Part shown: in pieces, positions 2,152 through 56,969 of the stretch
Position numbering within the stretch: position 1 is the stretch's first letter
Layout of the letters: each line of letters starts with the position of its first letter
From: Candidatus Colwellbacteria bacterium
GTDB taxonomy: Bacteria; Patescibacteriota; Minisyncoccia; UBA6257; Colwellbacteraceae
NCBI GenBank assembly: GCA_028710275.1
Contig: JAQTUL010000008.1
Coordinates: 1 to 58,500 of the forward strand
Length of the DNA: 58,500 nucleotides
Direction: 5' to 3'
Position numbers and translations under genes: made by a program
The notes under the pieces: generated by a model
Told to the model about the DNA's origin: nothing
The model's database searches: none
Seen by the model: the letters and a program-made list of their open reading frames with translations, nothing else

Positions 2152-3861
2152 ATGACAGAAACATCAAACGATAAGGACCTACTCTCTATCGGCGAAGTTG
2201 CCAAGATTTTTGGCATAAACAGAGATACCCTCCGCAATTGGGAGAAAAAGGGACTCATTACTCCACTTAGGATAGGTCCTCGTAAAGATCGCAAATACAG
2301 ACCGGAAGATATTGAGCGAATTGCTAATGACAAAAGCATTGTTAAAGATCTTGGTGTCCCCTTAACGGATGATCAGGGAAAGATGAACCTAACTCAGCTC
2401 AAGCAATTCCTTTGGAGAAGTGCCGATATTTTGCGGGGAAAGATCGACAGCTCGGATTACAAGAAATACATTTTTGGACTCCTATTCTATAAGCGCATCA
2501 GCGATATGTGGGATGAAGAGTATAAAAAGGTTCTTGAGGAGTATCACAATGAGGATTTAGCTCGCGAAGATCATAATCACCGATTTCAAGTTCCTAAAGA
2601 TTGCCGATGGGAAGTAATTCAAAAACAAGCTGAAGGAATCGGTCACAAACTCAATGAAATTTTTGATAAGCTAACCAACGCAAACAGTCCTAAACTCGAC
2701 AAGATTTTCGACGACCTTGATTTTGCTAATAAGGATAAGTTTCCGAATGAAACACTACAACGTCTTATAAATCACTTTTCACAGCATAATTTTGGAGATA
2801 ATTATATTAATTCCGATCTCCTTGGAGACGCATACGAGTATCTCATTGAGCAATTCGCAGCGGATGCGGGCAAAAAAGGCGGAGAGTTCTACACGCCACG
2901 CGAAGTTGAGCGCGTAATTGTCAATATCTTAAAGCCTCACGAAAAAGACCACATCTACGATATGACCGTAGGCTCCGGAGGATTCCTTTTAGAGGCGTAC
3001 CACTATCTTAAAAACGAGGCTAGTGAGAAGAAAGCTCGCTCACTCTACCTTTACGGGCAAGAAATAAATATCGGGACATATGCGATTGCGAAAATTAACA
3101 TGTTCCTTCATGGGCTTGATAGTGCCGACATACAACGTGGAGATACGCTAGCCGATCCGAAATTTCTAAATCCCGACGGCTCACTGAAGACCTTCGACAT
3201 CTGCGTAGCAAACCCACCCTATTCAATAAGTGAGTGGGAATCGGAAATATTTAAATCTGACAAACACGGACGAGCAGCTGGTTATGAAATGCCTCCGGCT
3301 AAGAAAGCGGACTATGCCTTTGTTCTTCACATGGTGAAGTCGATGAATGAGAACGGTCGTGCAGGCATCGTGCTTCCGCACGGTGTTCTTTTCCGTGGCG
3401 GCGCAGAGGGTCATATCCGTGAGCAGCTTATTAAAAATGATTTAATTGAAGCCATCATTGCCCTTCCCTCAAAGCTGTTCTATGGCACAGGTATCCCGGC
3501 GGCAATAGTAATATTTAACAAAAATAAGCCTGATGGCCATAAAAATAAGATCCTTATCGTCGATGCGGAGCAGGACTATGAAGAAGGCAAAAATCAGAAT
3601 CGCCTGCGGAAAGTGGATATTCAGAAGATAGTTTCGGCATTTGAGAGCTACAGAGACATTGAGAAATATGCCCGCGTCATAGGTATTAAGGAGCTTGAGG
3701 AAAACGAATTCAATCTCAATGTGCGTCGCTACGTTGAAAATGGCGAGGACGAGGAAGTGGTGGATGTAAAGACCGTCTGGGGCTATGTGAAAGAAATTGA
3801 AAATGATCGCGATGTGATTGATAAGAAGGTCGAGGGATATCTAAAGGGATTAAAATACTAA
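2152..3861 (+). CDS. hsdM: Type I R-M methyltransferase subunit HsdM with an N-terminal excisionase/MerR-type HTH extension
   Basis: Motif I TVGSGGFLL and motif IV NPPY; HsdM N-domain FLWRSADILRG. The first 77 aa (LLSIGEVAKIFGINRDTLRNWEKKGLITP) form an HTH. Confidence 0.9.
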   Translation: MTETSNDKDLLSIGEVAKIFGINRDTLRNWEKKGLITPLRIGPRKDRKYRPEDIERIANDKSIVKDLGVPLTDDQGKMNLTQLKQFLWRSADILRGKIDSSDYKKYIFGLLFYKRISDMWDEEYKKVLEEYHNEDLAREDHNHRFQVPKDCRWEVIQKQAEGIGHKLNEIFDKLTNANSPKLDKIFDDLDFANKDKFPNETLQRLINHFSQHNFGDNYINSDLLGDAYEYLIEQFAADAGKKGGEFYTPREVERVIVNILKPHEKDHIYDMTVGSGGFLLEAYHYLKNEASEKKARSLYLYGQEINIGTYAIAKINMFLHGLDSADIQRGDTLADPKFLNPDGSLKTFDICVANPPYSISEWESEIFKSDKHGRAAGYEMPPAKKADYAFVLHMVKSMNENGRAGIVLPHGVLFRGGAEGHIREQLIKNDLIEAIIALPSKLFYGTGIPAAIVIFNKNKPDGHKNKILIVDAEQDYEEGKNQNRLRKVDIQKIVSAFESYRDIEKYARVIGIKELEENEFNLNVRRYVENGEDEEVVDVKTVWGYVKEIENDRDVIDKKVEGYLKGLKY

Positions 3862-3865
3862 ATTT

Positions 3866-4678
3866 ATGTCAGAAGAACTACAAACAGAAGAAGTTAAAAC
3901 AATGAGCAAGCACGATTTCTATTTTGAAACCCCCTTGTATGAAGCAGTCTCAATTAGCGAACTAGAGAAAGATGCTTTCAGATACGATGTTGATGCCTAT
4001 AGCGCACAGAACGAGTCAGAAACTACCTACAGCATTTATACCCAAGAAATTGATACTTGGCTAAAAGATAGTACAACCATTGGTTTCTATCTGATTACTT
4101 TAACCTGTAAGAGAAAGCAGAATGATGTATTAAGATTTACTGTTTACAAGGACAGAGAAATTGTCCTAAAAATTGGTCAATACCCCTCTCTCGCAGATTT
4201 GCAGTTCGCGGAAATTGGTAAAAAGTATAACAAGGTTTTACCTTCTGAAGATCTAAAAAATCTCAAAAAGGCGATTGGGCTCGTATCTCACGGAGCTGGG
4301 GCGGGCTCGTTCGTTTATCTCAGGAGAATTTTTGAGAAATTAATTCTTGAGACATATACCAATAACGCTAGTTCTCTCAAGATAAACGAAAGTGATTTCA
4401 AAATACAGCGAATGATGGATAAAGTTGAAACGTTAAAAGCGTTCCTCCCGAGTCAGCTTGTAGAAATGAAGGGCGTTTACTCGATTTTAGGTAAAGGAGT
4501 CCACGAATTAACGGAGGAAGAGTGTCTCCGATATTTTTCACCGATCAAACTTTCTATTGAGTTGATCCTTGATCAGAAGATCGAGGAAGATAGAAAGCGT
4601 GAGAAAGACGCAGTGGTTAAAAAGCAATTACAACAAATTCAGCAGGAAATTGCCGCTGAAAGAGAAGATGAAAAATAA
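3866..4678 (+). CDS. Hypothetical protein inserted between hsdM and hsdS (possible DUF4145-like helical C-terminal half)
   Basis: 270-aa ORF tightly packed in the operon. The segment GLVSHGAGAGSFVYLRRIFEKLI...GKGVHE resembles helical domains seen in R-M loci, but the similarity is weak. Confidence 0.6.
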   Translation: MSEELQTEEVKTMSKHDFYFETPLYEAVSISELEKDAFRYDVDAYSAQNESETTYSIYTQEIDTWLKDSTTIGFYLITLTCKRKQNDVLRFTVYKDREIVLKIGQYPSLADLQFAEIGKKYNKVLPSEDLKNLKKAIGLVSHGAGAGSFVYLRRIFEKLILETYTNNASSLKINESDFKIQRMMDKVETLKAFLPSQLVEMKGVYSILGKGVHELTEEECLRYFSPIKLSIELILDQKIEEDRKREKDAVVKKQLQQIQQEIAAEREDEK

Positions 4679-5855
4679 TCTAGTACAACAGAATATTCCG
4701 AGCGGTTGGCAAAGCACCTCCGTCGATGATATTTGCTACGTTATGAAAGGACAGGGTCTTTCAAAAAAAGACATAGATCCTTCTGGTAAAAATAAATGCA
4801 TATTGTATGGCGAGTTATTTACAACTTACGACGAGGTTATTAAAGACGTAAAAAGCAGAACTGACTCAACTGTAGGCACTCCATCGGTCAGCGGTGATGT
4901 GCTGATCCCCGGATCGACAACAACGGTCGCACGAGACCTCGCAATTGCGTCAGCTTTAAACGAAGATGGTGTGCTTCTGGGTGGAGATATAAATATATTA
5001 AGAAGAAAAGACAGCTTCTACGACGCTAACTTTCTGGCCTATTACTTAACGCACTATAAGAAAGACGAAATTGGAAAACTCGGCCAAGGGACGACTATTG
5101 TTCACTTGTATGGAAGTAATATCAAAGCTTTAGAAGTCATTCTCCCTAAAAACATCAGAGAGCAGCAAAAAATTGCAGAGGTTTTAGGGACGGTGGATGA
5201 GGATATTGCGAAAACACAGGAAGTGATTGAAGCGACAGAAAAACTCAAGCGTGGATTGATGCAGGATATATTCAGCTTTAAAAATAAAAAAGATGTTAAA
5301 TATCTTGCTCTGGGGAATATTGGCAAGGTGTCCATGTGTAAGAGGGTTTTTAAAGAAGAAACATCAAACACGGGTGAGATACCGTTTTATAAAATTGGTA
5401 CTTTCGGGAAAGAGCCAGATGCTTTTATATCCCAAAAATTATTCGATAGTTACCGAAGAAAGTTTTCTTTTCCTAAAATTGGCGACATACTTTTATCAGC
5501 TTCTGGAACTATAGGTCGAAAAGTTAAATATGATGGCAAACCGGCGTATTTTCAAGATTCAAATATTATTTGGTTAGAACACGATGGAAGTAAAATTTTA
5601 AATGATTTCCTTTTTTATTTATACGACACAATAAAGTGGCAGACCGAAGGAAGCACAATAAAAAGATTGTATAACGATATTCTGTTGAAAAAAGTTGTTC
5701 CTGTGCCTTCTATTGATCAACAGAAGCGAATCGTAGAAGTTTTATCTGTAATTGATGAAAAGATTTCGGTCAATAAAAAATTGAAAGAAAAACTTACGCT
5801 CCTCAAAAGAGGCCTGATGCAGGATTTGTTGAGTGGGAAAAAGAGAATAATATGA
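4668..5855 (+). CDS. hsdS: Type I R-M specificity subunit HsdS
   Basis: Two variable target-recognition halves are each followed by the conserved LKRGLMQD(I/L) repeat. ATG 4668 has AAAGAGAAG upstream. The ORF track extends to 4569. Confidence 0.85.
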   Translation: MKNNLVQQNIPSGWQSTSVDDICYVMKGQGLSKKDIDPSGKNKCILYGELFTTYDEVIKDVKSRTDSTVGTPSVSGDVLIPGSTTTVARDLAIASALNEDGVLLGGDINILRRKDSFYDANFLAYYLTHYKKDEIGKLGQGTTIVHLYGSNIKALEVILPKNIREQQKIAEVLGTVDEDIAKTQEVIEATEKLKRGLMQDIFSFKNKKDVKYLALGNIGKVSMCKRVFKEETSNTGEIPFYKIGTFGKEPDAFISQKLFDSYRRKFSFPKIGDILLSASGTIGRKVKYDGKPAYFQDSNIIWLEHDGSKILNDFLFYLYDTIKWQTEGSTIKRLYNDILLKKVVPVPSIDQQKRIVEVLSVIDEKISVNKKLKEKLTLLKRGLMQDLLSGKKRII

Positions 5856-7132
5856 CTACCGAAACGCTAAAAAATAAAACGAAGACGAAAGAGATATACC
5901 ACGCAGTTAATACCGATCCTATTTTCGATGTTAAATCACGTGAAGTAACTAAGGGAAGTCTTTACGAAATTGTCTTTCCGTTTAACCGTCAAGGTAAGCA
6001 GAAATATTCTCTGATATCTGAGATCCATTTCGATGGGGTTAGTCGTCTAGACCTCAAAGGTATGCGAGGCATATCTCGCGGTTATGGCTTTACGCAGGAT
6101 ACTTCTCCCATCGTATCCACTCTGAATGAAGCTTTCCATGGCGTGACAAAAATTATCATTTCCACTAAGGCAACATCAATCAACCAGCGAAAAAGTGAGC
6201 TCGTGTTGAACATTAATGACTATAAGACTATTTACTCTACGATCAGGCCAAAAAACCAGAAACATTCTAAAGACCAAAAGGTTACAATCTATAATATTTT
6301 GGCACAGGCAGGCGGATTAGGCCTCAAGGCTAAGAAAATTCCTTATATCGCTGGATCAATTAAGGGAATCTTGAGAGAGGTTTCTTCATCGGGAGGAAAG
6401 CTGTCAGACGCCGATTCCGCCGCACTTCTTGATTTTGCACAGAACAAAATTGAAAACTATGACATTGATGCTGCCGCTCTAATCCATACGAAGGAAAAAA
6501 TAGACAAGGTTTATTTTGAGAAAGTCATAGCTAGGTTCGAGAAATTACTTGCTCTTAAAAAGGGTGTCGGTGCAAAGAAGATGGAACAGAGTTGGCACAA
6601 CTTCTTTAAAGATAACTCTTGGATCTTTTCGTACTTGTTTGCTGCACCACACTTCCTTTTTCAGGACGAGTATTATGTTGGTGGGCAAAAAGGCACGGGC
6701 AAAGAAGCGCGATATGCTGATTTTATTTATAAAAATAAACTGACCGACAGTGCAACAATAATTGAGATTAAAACTCACAGGACGAAAATACTACACAACA
6801 CTGCCTATCGTTCTGCTGGGAAGGTATATCCGATCTCGTCAGACATCACTGGAGCAATAAATCAGGTGCTCGATCAGAAGAACACTCTTCTTAAGAATTA
6901 TTCAACTGTAGCTCAAGGTGATTTTGAGATCTTTGACCCTCGCTGCGTCATCGTGGTCGGAAACACCAAAGACATCCCAAGGGAACGGGTAAAGAATTTT
7001 GACATGTTCCGCTCGAACCTGAGGAACATAGAAATCATCTGTTTCGACGAACTACTGGAAAAAGCAAAATTGCTTTTGAGTCACTTCATCAAACCGAGGG
7101 TCCCCAAAAAGAAAAAGAAGAAAAGAAAGTAA
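5852..7132 (+). CDS. Shedu-like (DUF4263-type) PD-(D/E)XK nuclease with an unrecognised N-terminal domain
   Basis: The C-terminal half has WHNFFKDNSWIFSYLF, YADFIY...IIEIKTH (D..ExK), VIVVGNT and IEIICFDELL, which matches the Shedu/SduA layout. Lysine-rich tail. Confidence 0.6.
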   Translation: MTTETLKNKTKTKEIYHAVNTDPIFDVKSREVTKGSLYEIVFPFNRQGKQKYSLISEIHFDGVSRLDLKGMRGISRGYGFTQDTSPIVSTLNEAFHGVTKIIISTKATSINQRKSELVLNINDYKTIYSTIRPKNQKHSKDQKVTIYNILAQAGGLGLKAKKIPYIAGSIKGILREVSSSGGKLSDADSAALLDFAQNKIENYDIDAAALIHTKEKIDKVYFEKVIARFEKLLALKKGVGAKKMEQSWHNFFKDNSWIFSYLFAAPHFLFQDEYYVGGQKGTGKEARYADFIYKNKLTDSATIIEIKTHRTKILHNTAYRSAGKVYPISSDITGAINQVLDQKNTLLKNYSTVAQGDFEIFDPRCVIVVGNTKDIPRERVKNFDMFRSNLRNIEIICFDELLEKAKLLLSHFIKPRVPKKKKKKRK

Positions 7133-7133
7133 C

Positions 7134-10046
7134 ATGAAATTTAACGAACAGGTCACAGTAGAAAGCTACATTATCAAGTTTATTGAAAATAAACTTGGCT
7201 TCGATTACATAAAATCGGAGGAATTTTCAAGACTCCGTGATCTTGAGAGTGAATACATTATCAAATCGCAGTTACTTGATGCGGTGAAAAGAATAAACGA
7301 GGTTGGTGATGCTGTGGCAAAAAGTGTTTTGCGAGAAGTAACTAAAATAGATTCAAATAAGGACTTTTTAGATTCTATTCGCAATGGTATAAATCTGAAA
7401 GATCCAGAAACCGGGCTATTTCGTGATTATAAAATCGTTGATTTTAATAATCCGGAAAATAATCAGTTTGTTGTTACCAACCAATTCTATTTTGAGGGAG
7501 ATACAGAAAATATTCGTCCGGATATATTGATTTTTGTGAACGGACTTCCGCTCGTGGACATTGAAGCAAAGAGTCCAACCGCCTCAGAAGGGGTTAACTT
7601 TGAGAATGGGATTGAGCAAATTAAGAGATATGAAAAAGTCGCCCGCAGGTTGTTTATTCCAAACTGCTTTAATATTGCGAGCGATGGTCTTAAAACAGTT
7701 TATGGAGCGACTGGTTCGCCGAAACAGCTTTTCCTCCAGTGGAGGGATGAGGATATAGAAAAAGAGTTTGGTGGCGAGTTAGAAATGACGCTCTTCTCAC
7801 TTCTCTCCAAAGAAAACTTTCTAGATATTATTCAAAACTTTATTCTCTTTGAAAAAGAGAAAGAGAAGATGGTAAAGAAAATGGCTCGCTATCAGCAAAT
7901 GCGAGCAACTAATAAGATTGTCGAGCGCGTTCTTTCCAAAGAAAAAAGACAAGGCTTAATTTGGCACACACAAGGATCCGGGAAAACACTTACAATGTTT
8001 TTCACTGCGTGGAAACTGCGATTCAATAAAGTCCTTGCCAACCCGAAGGTGTTTATTTTGGTTGATCGCGTGGATTTAGATGACCAGATATTTGAGACCT
8101 TTACCAATGCTGGAGGAAAGAACGTGGAAAGAGTTGTTTCTCGGAAAGATTTAGAAGAAAAGATTCAATCACCGATAAGCGGAATATTTATCACAACAAT
8201 TCAGAAGTTCTCAGAACTCGGAAGCCAAGTAGAAAATCTCGATGAAAATGTGATTATTCTTGCCGATGAAGCTCACCGAGGTAATGAGGGTATTTCTGGT
8301 ATCAATATGCGTAATGCCTTTAAAAAAGCGTTCTTCTTTGGATTTACTGGAACGCCAGTTGATAAAACACACACAAATACTTTCCGGAACTATGAGGGCG
8401 AAGGAAAACGCTACTTGGATTATTACTCCATCCAGCAATCAATTGATGACGGGGCGACAATTCCGGTGACATATGAGGCACGTCTCTCTAAGTTCTCTAT
8501 AGATGAAGAAAAACTTGATCAGAAATTTGAAGAGATAACCGGAGATTTACCTGATAAGCAAAAAACCGAACTTATAAAGAAATATGGTAAGAAGGCTGCG
8601 CTTGTTAAGTTACCAAAACGAATGGAAGCCGTAGCCAGAGATATTGTTGAGCATTATAAGCTATATGTCGAACCAAACGGTTTTAAGGCACAGGTTGTTG
8701 CATACGACCGTGAAGCAGTGGCGAATTATAAAAAGCTATTCGACAAACTCATCCCCGCTGAATGGTCAGCTGTGGTTTATTCGCCTGGAGATCCAAACAG
8801 TGATGCTGATGACTTAAAGATATATAACACGAGTAAACGTGAGCGAGAACAAATCATCGAACGCTTTAAAGATCCAAAATCTTCACTAAGACTCCTTCTG
8901 GTATGTGATATGTTACTAACTGGTTTTGATGCGCCTATTGAGCAAGTCATGTATCTCGATAAGCCGCTCCGTGATCACAACCTCTTGCAAGCAATTGCTC
9001 GTACAAACCGCGTCTACACAAATAAAGACTACGGGAAAATTATTGATTACTACGGAATAACGCGCAATCTCTACGACGCTCTTGATTTTGACGAAGATAT
9101 CATCGATTCAGCAATGATTGATATCGAGCGGGTCAAAGAAAGATTTACCGACATCTTGAGCGACATAATGAAGATGTTTATCGGAATTAATATTGAGGAT
9201 CCATCAATGGATAATCTCCGCCGATGCTTGAAGATTTTCATCGATAATCAAGATAAGCAAAAATATTTTCTTGAAAAATATACAAAACTAAAAAGCTTGT
9301 TTGAATTTCTATCGCCCGACCCATTCCTAAAAGAATATGTCCGTTCTTTTGAATGGGTGACAAGCTTCTATTTGGCATTTTTAAAAGAATTCCGAAATGA
9401 AGATGACAGATATCTGCTCGGAGAATATGGCGAGAAAGTTAAAGAACTCATACAAGAAAGTAACATTATTGACTACGAAGGGATTACTAAGAACTTCCGA
9501 GAGCTTCGTGTAAACGATCTATATACACTTGAGCGCCTAAAAGGAATGGACGACGAAGAAAAAGCGCTCAATCTCGAGAAAATGCTCAAGCAAGAAATCT
9601 CGATCAATCTTGACGAAAATCCTGCGTATCAAAAATTTAGCGAACGATTAACGGCTATTCGTCGCGAATTTGAGCAGAACCAAATTGACCTGGCTGAGCG
9701 TATCCGCCGATATGAGGAATTAATGAGTGATATTAAGTCAAAAGGAGAAGAAGCCAAAGATTTAGGTCTTGATCTCAAAGAATATGCACTCTATGTCATA
9801 TCGCAGGAATTCATTGAGGATGGTAAAGACGATGTTATTAAGAAATTCGTAAAGGAATTGCGGATTCGTATTGAAGATGACCTCGATGTAGGATGGCAAG
9901 AATCGTCAAAGCGGGACGCTTTTGTTAAGGATATTAAGCAAACTCTACAGGAGCTTATTCTGAAAGATTACAGAGAACAATTTAAAGTTACAGATTTCCC
10001 AAAGTTTTTAAATAGATTGGTCGACATAATCACGAAAAAATTCTGA
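7134..10046 (+). CDS. hsdR: Type I restriction enzyme R subunit HsdR
   Basis: 970 aa. N-terminal nuclease PDILIFVNGLPLVDIEAK, Walker A TQGSGKT, DEAH box ADEAHRG, motif VI QAIARTNR. Confidence 0.92.
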   Translation: MKFNEQVTVESYIIKFIENKLGFDYIKSEEFSRLRDLESEYIIKSQLLDAVKRINEVGDAVAKSVLREVTKIDSNKDFLDSIRNGINLKDPETGLFRDYKIVDFNNPENNQFVVTNQFYFEGDTENIRPDILIFVNGLPLVDIEAKSPTASEGVNFENGIEQIKRYEKVARRLFIPNCFNIASDGLKTVYGATGSPKQLFLQWRDEDIEKEFGGELEMTLFSLLSKENFLDIIQNFILFEKEKEKMVKKMARYQQMRATNKIVERVLSKEKRQGLIWHTQGSGKTLTMFFTAWKLRFNKVLANPKVFILVDRVDLDDQIFETFTNAGGKNVERVVSRKDLEEKIQSPISGIFITTIQKFSELGSQVENLDENVIILADEAHRGNEGISGINMRNAFKKAFFFGFTGTPVDKTHTNTFRNYEGEGKRYLDYYSIQQSIDDGATIPVTYEARLSKFSIDEEKLDQKFEEITGDLPDKQKTELIKKYGKKAALVKLPKRMEAVARDIVEHYKLYVEPNGFKAQVVAYDREAVANYKKLFDKLIPAEWSAVVYSPGDPNSDADDLKIYNTSKREREQIIERFKDPKSSLRLLLVCDMLLTGFDAPIEQVMYLDKPLRDHNLLQAIARTNRVYTNKDYGKIIDYYGITRNLYDALDFDEDIIDSAMIDIERVKERFTDILSDIMKMFIGINIEDPSMDNLRRCLKIFIDNQDKQKYFLEKYTKLKSLFEFLSPDPFLKEYVRSFEWVTSFYLAFLKEFRNEDDRYLLGEYGEKVKELIQESNIIDYEGITKNFRELRVNDLYTLERLKGMDDEEKALNLEKMLKQEISINLDENPAYQKFSERLTAIRREFEQNQIDLAERIRRYEELMSDIKSKGEEAKDLGLDLKEYALYVISQEFIEDGKDDVIKKFVKELRIRIEDDLDVGWQESSKRDAFVKDIKQTLQELILKDYREQFKVTDFPKFLNRLVDIITKKF

Positions 10047-10047
10047 T

Positions 10048-10614
10048 ATGAGTAAAATAGAATTACAAAATCAAACTATTACCTACACTCTTCGTAAGAG
10101 TAAGCGTGCTAAAAGAATGAGACTTGCGGTCTATTGTGACGGAACAATAGTGATCACTACTCCGCACAATTTTAAAGAAACAGTCGCAGAGAAGTTTATT
10201 AGGGAAAAGTCTGAATGGTTATTCTCAAAAATTGATTTCTTTAAGCAATTTCAAGGTCGTCCAGTTGCCCGATATAGCCAAGAAGACTATCTGAAATATA
10301 AAGATCAGGCGTTGGCTTTAACTAAAAAACGAATTGAGTATTTCAACAAAGCTCATGGTTTTAAATTCAATAAAATCAATATCAAAAATCAGAAGACTCG
10401 CTGGGGCAGCTGTTCAAGAAAAGGAAACTTGAATTTCAACTACAAAATTATCTTTCTACCGGATCGAGTACAAGACTATATCGTTGCTCACGAACTCTGT
10501 CATCTCAAAGAGTTTAATCACTCTAGAAAATTCTGGACATTAGTTTCTAAATTGATGCCTGACTACGCTACTATCCGGAATGACTTAAAAAAGAGTGGTT
10601 TAGCATTCTATTAG
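10048..10614 (+). CDS. DUF45/YgjP-like zinc metallopeptidase-fold protein
   Basis: HELCHLKEFNHSRKFW (HExxH...H) and TRWGSC. This family is commonly adjacent to hsdR. Confidence 0.8.
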   Translation: MSKIELQNQTITYTLRKSKRAKRMRLAVYCDGTIVITTPHNFKETVAEKFIREKSEWLFSKIDFFKQFQGRPVARYSQEDYLKYKDQALALTKKRIEYFNKAHGFKFNKINIKNQKTRWGSCSRKGNLNFNYKIIFLPDRVQDYIVAHELCHLKEFNHSRKFWTLVSKLMPDYATIRNDLKKSGLAFY

Positions 10615-10615
10615 G

Positions 10616-11353
10616 ATGATTAAAAGATTACCTAATCCAATAAAAAAAGTTGAGACCGGATTAATACAGTTTTTCTTTTACATAGGAACACTGGCCTACT
10701 TACTCTTAAAAGGATATGGATGGTCTTCTGTTCTGATTATTCATCTGATTTTTGTAGTGTTGTACGGAGTCTACTATTTCAGAGAAAATTTTCTCATATT
10801 TTTCTTTTCACCTATTATCGCTGTTTGGTTGCCAATTGAGAACTATAAGCTTCGAAAATATCTCAAAAAATTCAAACAAAACACACCGGCTAAATCAGTA
10901 GTTATTTTGGGACGTTATAATTGGTTTAAGTTTGACGCTTGGCTCAGGCAAAATTTTCTGAAGAGCGAGGTTAAGTCTCTTGTCTCATATTTAGAGGCAA
11001 AGAATCGAGACTTTTCTTTCTATCCTGATGCTACTCTTGCCGATGTGGAAAGTATTATGAGTAATAAGAGTATAAAGGAGGTGTATTTTATGGGCCACGG
11101 CGATTCACACACATTTCAACTTAACACTGATGAATTTCTGTACTATTGCGATTTTAACGATCCACAAAAATACGGCAAAGAATTTGTGCATCAAGTACAC
11201 TGCGGCACTCCTGATGGAAAAAGCTTAATAGATTATGTTGTGCCAGAGAAGAATAGGCCACAGTGCTTTTTCTTCAGGAAGCCAATTAATTCCTTCGATA
11301 TTGATAAGGAATTTAAGCGGAGGATTAAGAACCTCAAAAAATTAGGCGATTAG
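10616..11353 (+). CDS. Membrane-anchored hypothetical protein with a possible caspase/CHAT-like His/Cys dyad
   Basis: About three N-terminal TM helices. The C-terminal domain has VVILG, YFMGHGDSH and HQVHCGTPDG. The fold assignment is tentative. Confidence 0.55.
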   Translation: MIKRLPNPIKKVETGLIQFFFYIGTLAYLLLKGYGWSSVLIIHLIFVVLYGVYYFRENFLIFFFSPIIAVWLPIENYKLRKYLKKFKQNTPAKSVVILGRYNWFKFDAWLRQNFLKSEVKSLVSYLEAKNRDFSFYPDATLADVESIMSNKSIKEVYFMGHGDSHTFQLNTDEFLYYCDFNDPQKYGKEFVHQVHCGTPDGKSLIDYVVPEKNRPQCFFFRKPINSFDIDKEFKRRIKNLKKLGD

Positions 11354-11402: not shown

Positions 11403-11936
11403 TTAAATTTCCTTGATCTTTTTATGTTTCTGCCAATCTCTAATATATCCCTCATAACCCGATAACTCGTAGTCCTCTATAGGACTACCATCCGGCTTAT
11501 TAGGTATTTCTCCACCAAACATTGTCAGTTCTTCTTTTAACCTTAGCGTTTTTTGACGTAAATTTTCTTCGAAGCTGTCTATTACATCTTCAGCCGTTAT
11601 CTGCTCGACAACTGGTGGCAACTCTTTCTTATGGAAGATAACCACATTACTCGTTTGTTTAGACTTATATCTTTGATCATTATGGCCTAGTACATATTTG
11701 ATCGCCGTCATGTCCTTGTCCTTTACCTTGAGCATGAGAGCATGTTCGGCTATGTCGCAATTATTTTCTCTGCCACGCTGTATGGCCTGACCCGCAAGTT
11801 TCCGGAACTCTTTATCCGAGTTGCGCCAACGATAATACGTCGATTTGTCGATTCCGGTTTTCAGGCAAGACAAAAATACATTCCCGCTTTTCTCGAGTTC
11901 TTTAAGAAGTTTCTGTTTTGTCTTGTCGTCGATCAT
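11403..11936 (-). CDS. Phage-type HTH protein (terminase small subunit-like)
   Basis: N-terminus KQKLLKELEKSGNVFLSCLKTGIDKSTYYRWRNSD resembles the HTH of phage small terminase/phBC6A51-type proteins. Confidence 0.55.
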   Translation of the reverse strand: MIDDKTKQKLLKELEKSGNVFLSCLKTGIDKSTYYRWRNSDKEFRKLAGQAIQRGRENNCDIAEHALMLKVKDKDMTAIKYVLGHNDQRYKSKQTSNVVIFHKKELPPVVEQITAEDVIDSFEENLRQKTLRLKEELTMFGGEIPNKPDGSPIEDYELSGYEGYIRDWQKHKKIKEI

Positions 11937-11937
11937 A

Positions 11938-13266
11938 TTAATTCACTTTTACTGGTTTCTTACCTGTTTCTTTTCCCCAGCGACGCAATATCACTTCGGT
12001 ATAGACTGGAGATTTTTCCATAAGATAACACCGACGGCTCATTTTGTTTGCCGCGATGAGTGTCGACCCGCTTCCGCCAAACGGCTCAACAATCAGGTCG
12101 CCACGTCTGGTTAATACCTTGATGTATGGAATAAGGATCTCAACAGGCTTAGTCCCGAAGATAATGCCTTGTCCTGATGATTTCTCGTCAGCCGCAATGT
12201 GCTCGATAAAGTCAGTCGGACATATTTTCTTGCCTTTCTCGTATGTCTCCCAATGCGGTTTACCGTTTATGGCATACAAGGCGGTTTCGTATTCGTTTTC
12301 GAGAAACTCTCCTTCATCTTGGTTTATAAGCTCCACACCTTCGGTTGTGCCGACCATGGCAATATCGTGTTTATTAAAGAATCGGTATTTGGCTGAGAAT
12401 CCCTGCACTCTATTAGGTAAGTGCCAGACGATCATGTTTTTGACCTTCCAGTGTTTTTCCATCTCGTTCCAGATAGTCCTAATATTCTTCCAATTCTCAT
12501 AGACGATAATGGCGAAGTCTTCTTTAGCCACCTTACTGATGTTACTCATCCAGAGTTCAGTGAAGTTATCCGGCAAGACATCGGTTTCAAGGTAGCGCCT
12601 GTTTTTCTTGGCCCCGAAGCCTGTCGTCACGCCATCTTTCTGCTTTGTTTTGCCTTTTAGGTAATCGAGGATGTATGGCGGATCGGTAAGGCACATATCC
12701 GCCTTATTGTTGTCCATAAGTTTGAGCATATCTGCCTCCACGGTTGAATCACCGCACATGAGGCGCGATCCATCCAGTTCATAGATATCGCCCTTTTCTA
12801 CGCTGATTGTTTCAATGCTTAGCTTCTCTAACTCTTTATTGAGATCAAACTGCTCAACATTTGGATCAACGGGGAAGATGTCATCTAAGTCTTCGCTGTT
12901 GAAGCCAATATCGGCGAGAAATGACTCGTCGAATTGAGCTAACAGTTCAAGGTCAAACTCTCCAGTATTTTTGTTGAGCCGGAGGTTTAACTCTTTCTCT
13001 TTAGATAAGTCGGCAATTTGTACATAGACTACTGGCACCGCTGCCATACCCATCTCTTTAGCTACCTCAGCTCTGAAGTGACCGCCAATGATTATGTTCT
13101 TTCGCTCCGGCGCGCTATTGCATATCACCGGATCAACCATACCGAATCGTTTGATGGATTCTCTAAGCTGGTCGCTTTGTTCCTTGGAGTGTCTTCGAGG
13201 GTTATACTCCGATGCCCGAAGTTCGTTAATCGGAACTTCAACGATAGAAAGATTTTGTTTATTCAT
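11938..13266 (-). CDS. ParB-like nuclease domain fused to an N4/N6 DNA methyltransferase
   Basis: ParB/Srx motifs YNPRRH and IIGGHFR; methylase motif IV TDPPY and motif I EPFGGSGST. Confidence 0.85.
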   Translation of the reverse strand: MNKQNLSIVEVPINELRASEYNPRRHSKEQSDQLRESIKRFGMVDPVICNSAPERKNIIIGGHFRAEVAKEMGMAAVPVVYVQIADLSKEKELNLRLNKNTGEFDLELLAQFDESFLADIGFNSEDLDDIFPVDPNVEQFDLNKELEKLSIETISVEKGDIYELDGSRLMCGDSTVEADMLKLMDNNKADMCLTDPPYILDYLKGKTKQKDGVTTGFGAKKNRRYLETDVLPDNFTELWMSNISKVAKEDFAIIVYENWKNIRTIWNEMEKHWKVKNMIVWHLPNRVQGFSAKYRFFNKHDIAMVGTTEGVELINQDEGEFLENEYETALYAINGKPHWETYEKGKKICPTDFIEHIAADEKSSGQGIIFGTKPVEILIPYIKVLTRRGDLIVEPFGGSGSTLIAANKMSRRCYLMEKSPVYTEVILRRWGKETGKKPVKVN

Positions 13267-13544: not shown

Positions 13545-14192
13545 ATGTCTTTATCCGATAAAGCCATCAAAGAGTTTCAGGAGATTTATAAGAAGAAATA
13601 CGGCAAAGATATTTCTCCTGAAGAAGCACGCGATGCTGGCGAGCGTTTAGTAGGCTTGTTTGAAGTTCTGTTTGATAGCCATGTTGCCGAATTAAGGTTG
13701 AAGGAGAAGCTGAAAGATCACCCAAAGGGGTTTTCTTTAATGGATGACGAGATCTATAACTGCGGTATTTGCCATACTCAGATCAGAGACGAAGAACTTT
13801 GGTATGACAAATGGGGTAAAAAGTGCCTTGCGTGCCAGGATGCAGTAAACAAGAAGATTATTCCCGGGAAGATCTGTTATAACAACAAAGATTGGTACGC
13901 TGTATGGGAGCTAGATAGCTGTTTCAAACTAAAGGCGGCGGCCGCCAGGAAGCTTATCCGACAAGGCGTCCTAAAGGCTCGTATTGTCCCAAAAAGCGGC
14001 TTTGAGGTCATTTTGTTGAAAGAGAATACCGATGTCCTACCTCCTAAGGAAATACTGAAATATGTCTCTGTACCTGTAGAGGGCAAAGAGGGCGCTTTCA
14101 GCATGACCCCGTGGTACGAAATATATGATCCCAAGAAGGTGCTAGGGAGCTATAAAATCTGGCCGTATTTAACAGCTTTTAACCAAAAATAA
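13545..14192 (+). CDS. Hypothetical protein with a CxxC...CxxC zinc-finger-like motif
   Basis: 215-aa ORF. CGICHTQI...KKCLACQ. Island cargo. Confidence 0.6.
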   Translation: MSLSDKAIKEFQEIYKKKYGKDISPEEARDAGERLVGLFEVLFDSHVAELRLKEKLKDHPKGFSLMDDEIYNCGICHTQIRDEELWYDKWGKKCLACQDAVNKKIIPGKICYNNKDWYAVWELDSCFKLKAAAARKLIRQGVLKARIVPKSGFEVILLKENTDVLPPKEILKYVSVPVEGKEGAFSMTPWYEIYDPKKVLGSYKIWPYLTAFNQK

Positions 14193-56615: not shown

Positions 56616-56963
56616 GGGGATGACAGGCCTCGACGGTTTAATAAAGGAATAATTGCAGGCAGAGCTCGGATATCTCTTTAAAATTTCCGAAAAACAACAA
56701 ACGCCAACATTTTCAACAGGCGCCCTGCTTTCGCTTTCGCTTAAGTCAGGTGCTTTACACGGGATGCGTTCGACGCCCGAGTAAGGTATAAAACATTCGA
56801 ATTGCTCCCCTCGCCCGCCCGGACGATGGGTTAAGACAAAAAGGCAAGGAATATCATCTCGTCGCCAGATCATTGGATGAAATTCCTAAATATCGGTCTG
56901 GATAAGCCTGTAGATATTGTTCTGGAATTACTTCGGACGCGGGTTCAATTCCCGCCATCTCCA
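56616..56963 (+). ncRNA. ssrA: tmRNA (ssrA), tag peptide ANIFNRRPAFAFA
   Basis: 5' GGGGATG pairs with 3' CATCTCC, including G3:U70. T-arm GCGGG-TTCAATT-CCCGC. Tag reading frame GCC...GCT TAA at 56703-56744. Lies directly downstream of smpB. Confidence 0.88.
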
Positions 56964-56969
56964 CATATT

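Follow-up and report, generated by a model that had tools for sequence, protein, structure and literature searches.

The window analysed here, a 58,500-nt stretch of Candidatus Colwellbacteria bacterium DNA (contig JAQTUL010000008.1), carries near its start a type I restriction-modification (R-M) operon in which seven genes are packed on the forward strand between 2152 and 11353, with junction spacings of -11 to +4 nt. From comparison with related loci, this operon is likely to be a type I R-M scaffold in which a YgjP-like partner is constant and three cassette slots hold autonomous, co-expressed guest defence genes. The operon family would be marked by a MerR-type helix-turn-helix (HTH) domain fused to HsdM and by a YgjP-like zinc peptidase encoded always right after HsdR. 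Its slots for self-sufficient, horizontally exchanged defence genes would lie between hsdM and hsdS (M/S), between hsdS and hsdR (S/R) and after the peptidase gene, and would here hold a 270-aa protein (X), a Shedu nuclease (SduA) and a membrane-anchored caspase-like protein of 245 aa, respectively. All seven genes would be transcribed from one hsdM promoter with coupled translation, and the guests would for that reason be co-expressed with the R-M genes, giving layered protection by sequence-specific restriction and independent effectors.

The gene order was read from the open reading frame (ORF) listing and directly from each junction:

2152-3861, + strand: hsdM, encoding the MerR-HTH-HsdM fusion
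3866-4678, + strand: X (270 aa), 4-nt gap after the hsdM stop
4668 (ATG) to 5855, + strand: hsdS, overlapping X by 11 nt
5852-7132, + strand: sduA (Shedu), 4-nt ATGA overlap with hsdS
7134-10046, + strand: hsdR, 1-nt gap after sduA
10048-10614, + strand: ygjP-like gene (YgjP-like/DUF45 HExxH peptidase), 1-nt gap after hsdR
10616-11353, + strand: gene of the 245-aa protein, 1-nt gap after the ygjP-like gene

The start of hsdS was taken as the ATG at 4668, while the mechanical ORF begins at a TTG at 4569. All seven reading frames are intact, as are the catalytic motifs of HsdM, HsdR, SduA and the peptidase. A sequence-only reading of this DNA had given the same seven genes and overlaps, and the ORF listing and junction read-out bear these out to the nucleotide; its labels (HTH-HsdM, HsdS, Shedu-like, HsdR and DUF45 HExxH) also agree with the calls from the three domain libraries used on the operon proteins (Pfam, NCBIfam and PADLOC 2.0.0).

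The evidence that separates scaffold from guests comes from a census of 79 metagenome loci with HsdR 62-95% identical to that of the window, plus 12 others, with counts made on about 70 non-redundant loci (individual loci carry L numbers below). The ygjP-like gene was observed directly 3' of hsdR in 65 of 67 non-redundant loci, so that among the four extra genes the YgjP-like peptidase alone is a fixed companion of hsdR. Of 45 loci, 41 had an occupied S/R interval, with at least 22 families or singletons represented, and 4 had an empty one. The M/S interval was filled in each of 37 loci, again by many families, and a same-strand gene within 60 nt after ygjP, of many kinds, was observed in a minority of loci. 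The sequence-only reading had proposed a fixed seven-gene system with the extra genes wired to restriction. Its description of an extended type I R-M transcription unit holds insofar as the extra genes are packed into the operon, but a fixed composite system does not: three of the four extras (X, SduA and the 245-aa gene) are absent, shuffled or replaced in homologous R-M operons, and only the DUF45/YgjP-like gene keeps its place.

The occupants of the slots are diverse. Those of the S/R slot include two Shedu families, an OLD-like ATPase, a PrrC/RloC-like ATPase and DUF4145/PD-T7-4, and the alternatives to X in the M/S slot include a ThsB-like TIR protein, DUF4145, NYN and AntA-like proteins and unannotated genes. 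Across the slots, the representative genes are of defence type and comprise the second Shedu family, an OLD/AriA/GajA-like AAA_15 protein, an AAA_13/PDC-S06 ATPase with a PrrC match, DUF4145/PD-T7-4, Bro-N/PDC-S13, PDC-S32, ThsB-like TIR, NYN and AntA-like proteins, and several others have no annotation. Families also shift between slots: X lies in the S/R slot of L121, three families (f11, f18, f44) were observed in both inner slots, and f20 with f21, as well as f61, lie either in the S/R slot or after ygjP. Single loci illustrate the same exchange, such as an unrelated 214-aa gene in place of X (L088), an HsdM-HsdS fusion with no M/S gene (L090) and an OLD-like ATPase in the M/S position (L177). 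In the closest X-bearing operon (L004/L005), hsdS overlaps hsdR directly and the S/R slot has no guest.

Two further observations concern the content of these slots. A recurrent cassette of two or three genes occupies the M/S slot of about ten relatives (L106, L115, L142, L154 and others), encoding a ThsB-like TIR protein of about 160 aa, an unannotated protein of 135-150 aa and sometimes a TIR-like protein of 229 aa; this cassette may be a small TIR-based system. After ygjP in L090 (15047-15580) lies a gene for a 177-aa protein in which a D...EVK pattern ('DILVSDPD...LKLEVKT'), noted by eye, resembles a PD-(D/E)xK motif.

Comparison of the window with relatives that carry other guests places the cassette boundaries at the ends of the scaffold genes. 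By BLASTN, homology stops exactly at the hsdM stop (3861), returns only in two hsdS regions (5131-5263 and 5754-5855), stops again at the hsdS stop (5855) and resumes at the hsdR ATG (7134). The junctions recur as well: of 41 loci, 20 show the ATGA overlap from hsdS to the guest and 15 a 4-nt overlap from the guest to hsdR. These exact breakpoints and recurring overlaps fit guest exchange by recombination in conserved flanks. We infer that guests are swapped in this way and selected to keep the tight coupling, and the exchange would proceed by homologous recombination within the hsdM 3' end, the conserved regions of hsdS and the hsdR 5' end.

The three Hsd proteins have the make-up of type I R-M components, and from its sequence the locus is an intact, working-looking type I R-M operon. 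HsdM, a gamma-class N6-adenine methyltransferase by its domains, matched N6_Mtase (6e-108), HsdM_N (1e-26) and MerR_1 (2e-12) in Pfam and TIGR00497 in NCBIfam (283 bits against a cutoff of 243). Its N-terminal MerR-type HTH spans residues about 10-71, the motifs GSGGF and NPPY lie at residues 274 and 354, and the fusion of HTH and HsdM is kept in relatives. HsdS matched Methylase_S in two stretches (3e-39, Pfam) and Specificity_I in PADLOC, and has two target-recognition domains, with conserved regions in the centre and at the C-terminus that correspond to the two hsdS stretches of returning BLASTN homology. HsdR, which has the N-terminal PD-(D/E)xK nuclease and the SF2 translocase expected of this subunit, matched TIGR00348 with 569 bits (cutoff 285) and contains HSDR_N, SWI2_SNF2, T1R_D3-like and T1RH-like_C domains, with the motifs D..EAK at residue 142 and DEAH at residue 378.

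Upstream of hsdM we observed a candidate promoter and operator region with the following parts:

2084-2149, + strand: promoter/operator region upstream of the hsdM ATG
2084-2092, + strand: CCTATGAAG box, with a degenerate second box at 2094-2102
2115-2120, + strand: -35-like TTGACG
2134-2139, + strand: -10-like TATGCT
2141-2149, + strand: ACATAGGAA, just ahead of the hsdM ATG

A consensus scan of this region gave TTGACG-18-TAACAT with an extended TG. When 37 related hsdM upstream regions were aligned, they shared tandem CCTATGAA boxes, TTGACA, a spacing of 17-18 nt, a CCTATGATA -10-like element and ACATATGAA before the ATG. The CCTATGAA boxes lie upstream of the -35, boxes related to them overlie the -10 and precede the ATG, and the layout was seen in L007, L096, L099, L102, L121, L156, L167 and others. 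Inside the operon the same scan found no comparable promoter signal and no standout terminator-like site. A single promoter upstream of hsdM thus probably serves all seven genes, and the fused MerR-type HTH possibly binds the CCTATGAA boxes and autoregulates the operon. Co-transcription and translational coupling of the seven genes are a reasonable expectation because the tight junctions recur in relatives and a single conserved promoter region lies upstream of hsdM. The translational coupling claimed in the sequence-only reading is to this extent probable: the tight and overlapping junctions on which it was based do recur, and coupling itself is deduced from them. The start of hsdS, ATGAAAAATAA, holds a TAA at which the upstream gene terminates, 11 nt inside hsdS (4668-4678 in the window). 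Several unrelated M/S genes use this hsdS TAA with the same -11 overlap (L100, L110, L118, L122, L130, L141, L143), and the hsdS start resembles a built-in landing pad for coupled translation.

The guest of the S/R slot is recognisable as a Shedu nuclease. SduA matched SduA_C (PF14082, DUF4263) with 83 bits against a cutoff of 27 (3e-23) in Pfam and the PADLOC SduA model with 224 bits (8e-67), and it aligns to Bacillus cereus SduA (8TI8) at 1e-30 with D289 and E305-x-K307 conserved. The alignment shows that the PD-(D/E)xK core is retained as the D of 'ADF' and an 'IEIK' motif (D..EIK); the inactive crystal construct 8TI9 has an A at the position of the catalytic E in this motif. The N-terminal domain of about 210 aa is without annotation (no Pfam match). 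In L087, L088/89 and L090/91, relatives at 62-93% identity take the same hsdS-hsdR position and their junctions have the same geometry, and a relative at 40% identity lies in the S/R position of L177. Further off, at 32-34% identity, full-length relatives occur as stand-alone genes in one Parcubacteria and one Elizabethkingia genome.

The YgjP-like protein matched PF01863 (the former DUF45) at 7e-45 and 154 bits (cutoff 26), with weak WLM and SprT-like matches besides, and its HExxH motif is HELCH at residue 148. NCBI annotates such proteins as 'SprT family' or 'M48 family'. Outside the census family, Salinibacter pSR56 carries M-S-ATPase-R-SprT/YgjP-like, again with the peptidase gene directly after hsdR, and in a Priestia plasmid the YgjP-like gene is adjacent but convergent. 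A YgjP-like homologue on a Lachnospira eligens plasmid has no R-M neighbour at all, and the link between hsdR and PF01863 is therefore frequent but not universal. A literature search for a connection of DUF45, COG1451 or YgjP to R-M returned nothing useful, and the link surfaced only through the term 'M48' in the description of the RRDM island discussed below (PMC12255303). The peptidase may control or clear HsdR, in a manner that could resemble either ClpXP-dependent restriction alleviation or a SprT/WLM-type protease that strips DNA-bound protein.

Protein X gave no match in Pfam, NCBIfam or PADLOC. The sequence-only reading had called it an orphan, a label that does not survive, as X belongs to a large unannotated family with 1,323 homologues in 90% clusters and 2,326 clusters at 50% identity in a profile search. 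Its homologues share 55-88% identity in bacteria of the candidate phyla radiation (CPR) and 31-47% in Proteobacteria, Bacteroidota and Bacillota. The gene fills the M/S slot in about 11 of the 37 related operons, and about ten of the retrieved loci have it between hsdM and hsdS; most homologues lie outside type I operons, where they adjoin a DpnII/MboI-like gene, MmeI/Eco57I-type methylases, Mrr or TIR genes, have unrelated surroundings or stand alone. An AlphaFold2 model of X, with a predicted local distance difference test score (pLDDT) of 86, shows a domain rich in beta structure at the N-terminus, then a helical domain and, at the C-terminus, a long coiled coil. It had no Foldseek match below 1e-3 in PDB or BFVD, its structural matches being weak, local and HEPN-like only (2q00 and 1jog, E about 0.5), and a profile search of PDB sequences found nothing. 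Nor did Pfam recognise a domain in longer homologues that are extended at the N-terminus. X was also considered as a DUF4145/HEPN protein and this was rejected: a Pfam scan of 27 members was null even at an E of 5, hhalign against two DUF4145 slot proteins was not significant (E 0.14 and 0.73), and the invariant 'GxHEL' lacks an upstream Arg at the spacing of the HEPN Rx4-6H motif. We regard X as a candidate new defence or R-M-associated family; a defence role for X, the 245-aa protein and many of the slot families is suggested by gene context.

The 245-aa protein encoded at the 3' end gave no match in Pfam (including Peptidase_C14 and CHAT), NCBIfam or PADLOC. It has 172 homologues, mostly in Patescibacteria, and in 25 of these a GHG (H161) and an HCG (C196) are invariant. 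In its AlphaFold2 model (pLDDT 88) both motifs come after predicted beta strands, and by sequence three hydrophobic N-terminal helices precede the C-terminal domain. The best Foldseek matches were caspase-7, -3 and -8, SAVED-CHAT and legumain, with probabilities of 0.9-0.98 and E only about 1e-2 at template modelling scores of 0.3-0.4; the top 19 were caspases or SAVED-CHAT. From the model, the protein looks like a membrane-anchored clan-CD (caspase)-like peptidase. Its gene follows ygjP in only 2 non-redundant loci, and is shared (86% identity) by L092/93, in which both inner slots hold other genes. A 56%-identical homologue (L094, 8001-8738) lies on the same kind of mobile element directly downstream of a cyclic oligonucleotide-based antiphage signalling system (CBASS) that comprises a SAVED protein, a SMODS cyclase (CD-NTase) and a 196-aa gene, and another (L095) lies on the opposite strand adjoining the recombinase. 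Tail genes after ygjP in relatives were also compared with the 245-aa gene as possible homologues and proved not homologous.

These observations bear on other ways to read the operon. The sequence-only reading had suggested a backup branch that fires when restriction fails, an idea known as the PrrC/EcoprrI paradigm. In that form, SduA and perhaps X would be bound and silenced by the type I complex and freed by a phage anti-restriction protein, whereupon SduA would act as a second nuclease or abortive effector; the peptidase could join the release step. SduA does hold exactly the position between hsdS and hsdR that prrC has in EcoprrI, embedded by a 4-nt overlap and a 1-nt gap that recur in relatives, and in relatives a PrrC/RloC-like AAA_13 ATPase can take this slot instead. 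An effector family confined to type I operons, as would be expected of a PrrC-type system, is not what we found: unrelated families, at least 22 of them, fill the slot, 4 of the 45 relatives, whose Hsd proteins are otherwise nearly identical, leave it vacant, and families move between slots, which fits parking places better than specific docking. Shedu is moreover described as a single-gene system, and the stand-alone SduA relatives at 32-34% identity argue against an obligate dependence on R-M. We therefore consider silencing by the R-M complex unlikely. An extension of it, in which HsdM2S/HsdR forms a common sensor platform where interchangeable slot effectors dock, and, once restriction is blocked, the YgjP-like peptidase either releases or activates these effectors or else removes HsdR, seems to us quite unlikely. 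The docking effectors may in that case be Shedu, X, the OLD-like and PrrC-like ATPases and the TIR proteins, and if true the guardian principle known from PrrC would extend to many classes of effector. A weaker version is likelier, in which X would be a new stand-alone anti-phage protein, the 245-aa protein would be a new membrane-anchored mini-caspase and many type I systems would have the YgjP-like protein as a genuine fourth component.

That the extras are accessory or regulatory R-M parts, with X aiding methyltransferase assembly or control and the peptidase and membrane protein controlling HsdR levels while the system establishes itself in a new host, is very unlikely for the set as a whole. 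The constant link of the peptidase to hsdR (65 of 67 loci, and also Salinibacter pSR56 and the enteropathogenic Escherichia coli (EPEC) island), an M/S slot that is always filled and the unusual conservation of X across many CPR lineages (55-88%) speak for such roles, but the occupants of the M/S slot (TIR, DUF4145, NYN, AntA-like, X) are mutually unrelated, most X homologues are not beside type I genes, the 245-aa protein occurs with CBASS and on the opposite strand, and SduA belongs to a recognised kind of stand-alone nuclease. For the peptidase by itself, an accessory role forms part of the explanation we prefer. A decaying or accidental juxtaposition in a prophage remnant, with no joint expression, is highly improbable: the element lacks the terminase-like gene of its relatives and matched no viral contig, but the seven frames and their catalytic motifs are intact, the same layout and junction geometry occur at 62-93% identity in several independent assemblies, and no terminator-like site stands out inside the operon. 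Several points weigh against the scaffold-and-cassette reading itself. The M/S slot is never empty where hsdM and hsdS are separate, and some product there may be needed. Every placeable SduA relative at 40% identity or more occupies the S/R slot of the same scaffold, as expected if SduA were held by the R-M complex, and because of this a lineage-specific functional tie of SduA to that complex may exist. The genes of related loci are longest-ORF calls grouped with BLASTP, which means that some 'singleton' families could be artefacts or pieces of a split family, and the evidence for cassettes consists of gene and sequence data rather than of expression or activity.

The arrangement in the window is a new instance of a published one, in which exchangeable defence genes lie in type I R-M operons with a hotspot between hsdS and hsdR. 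The closest described case is the EPEC RRDM island, with seven ORFs (RptR-HsdM-HsdS-DarT-DarG-HsdR-M48 metallopeptidase) under a single promoter, TAGCTA as operators of the RptR repressor, and an hsdS-hsdR site that, in its authors' view, is probably a hotspot for the recombination of defence systems (Nucleic Acids Res 2025, PMC12255303). Likened by layout and annotation, both loci have a regulator at the 5' end and a defence guest of stand-alone type in the hsdS-hsdR interval, and in both a gene for a predicted zinc metallopeptidase immediately follows hsdR. They differ in that the HTH of the window is of MerR type and fused to HsdM, whereas the EPEC regulator is a separate small repressor; in that the window has CCTATGAA boxes rather than TAGCTA operators; and in that the S/R guest is Shedu rather than DarTG2. 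The window also fills the M/S and 3' slots, and its host is a CPR bacterium and its carrier a serine-recombinase element. Relatives from E. coli found at the DNA level match only a 150-nt stretch of hsdR, and those loci have the order M-S-DUF4268-R without a peptidase gene.

Other type I operons with embedded effectors are known. The PrrC anticodon nuclease is embedded in the EcoprrI type IC locus, where the R-M complex keeps it latent and an anti-restriction peptide triggers it, and PrrC is almost exclusively found embedded. The window resembles this in carrying an effector gene inside a type I operon, and its relatives in having the AAA_13 ATPase with a PrrC match as an S/R occupant; it differs in that its Shedu subfamily also occurs alone and is known here from genes only. 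In Campylobacter jejuni hsd loci with RloC/rlo genes, the intervening ORFs differ from strain to strain; RloF and TgvAB are further type I-embedded examples, and TgvAB of Vibrio cholerae VPI-2 works without HsdR activity. In the count of Gu et al., 602 of 5,499 Shedu genes lay in R-M systems, among them type I systems, and the authors proposed that Shedu complements R-M (bioRxiv 10.1101/2023.08.10.552793; Mol Cell 2025). That census claims no specific HsdS/HsdR link, and the window is one more instance, in Patescibacteria and with an N-terminal domain that has no Pfam match. Payne et al., under the term 'guilt-by-embedding', described Hma, BREX, DISARM and type I R-M operons as often carrying embedded independent defence genes and used embedding as a discovery method, collecting 17,432 embedded genes in 3,231 families (bioRxiv 10.1101/2024.01.29.577857). 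Their survey was made on RefSeq genomes, among which CPR bacteria are scarce, and PADLOC 2.0.0 has a model for neither X nor the 245-aa protein.

What the window adds to this known rule is an unusually clean three-slot CPR scaffold with exact cassette boundaries. The slots in CPR bacteria expose dozens of unannotated candidate defence families that surveys based on RefSeq hardly cover, and the guests of note are the very large unannotated X family and the small, putatively membrane-anchored caspase-like protein that also accompanies a CBASS. The near-absolute link of hsdR and ygjP sharpens the question of what the DUF45/'M48' peptidase does for type I enzymes.

Judged by its flanking genes, the operon rides on a serine-recombinase mobile element, one end of which is marked by the recombinase:

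40-129: tRNA-Ser, next to the integrative element
689-2059, - strand: large serine recombinase (Resolvase, Recombinase and Zn_ribbon_recom domains), divergent from hsdM
11403-11936, - strand: HTH protein (Pfam), flank gene downstream of the operon
11938-13266, - strand: ParB-N6_N4 DNA methyltransferase (Pfam), flank gene
13545-14192: conserved 215-aa gene carried by the element

The same serine recombinase gene adjoins hsdM in L004, L087, L088, L090, L092 and many metagenome loci. The HTH and ParB-methyltransferase genes recur downstream of the operons of relatives, often with a terminase-like gene that those relatives carry beside them and that the element in the window is without. The element was also considered as a known virus, and an HsdR scan of IMG/VR gave no relative. 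Almost all sources of homologues are Patescibacteria (CPR), including Nomurabacteria, Paceibacterota and Magasanikbacteria. Elsewhere in the window, a tmRNA was observed at 56616-56964 (tag ANIFNRRPAFAFA) along with eleven scattered tRNA genes, which fits a small, gene-dense CPR chromosome.

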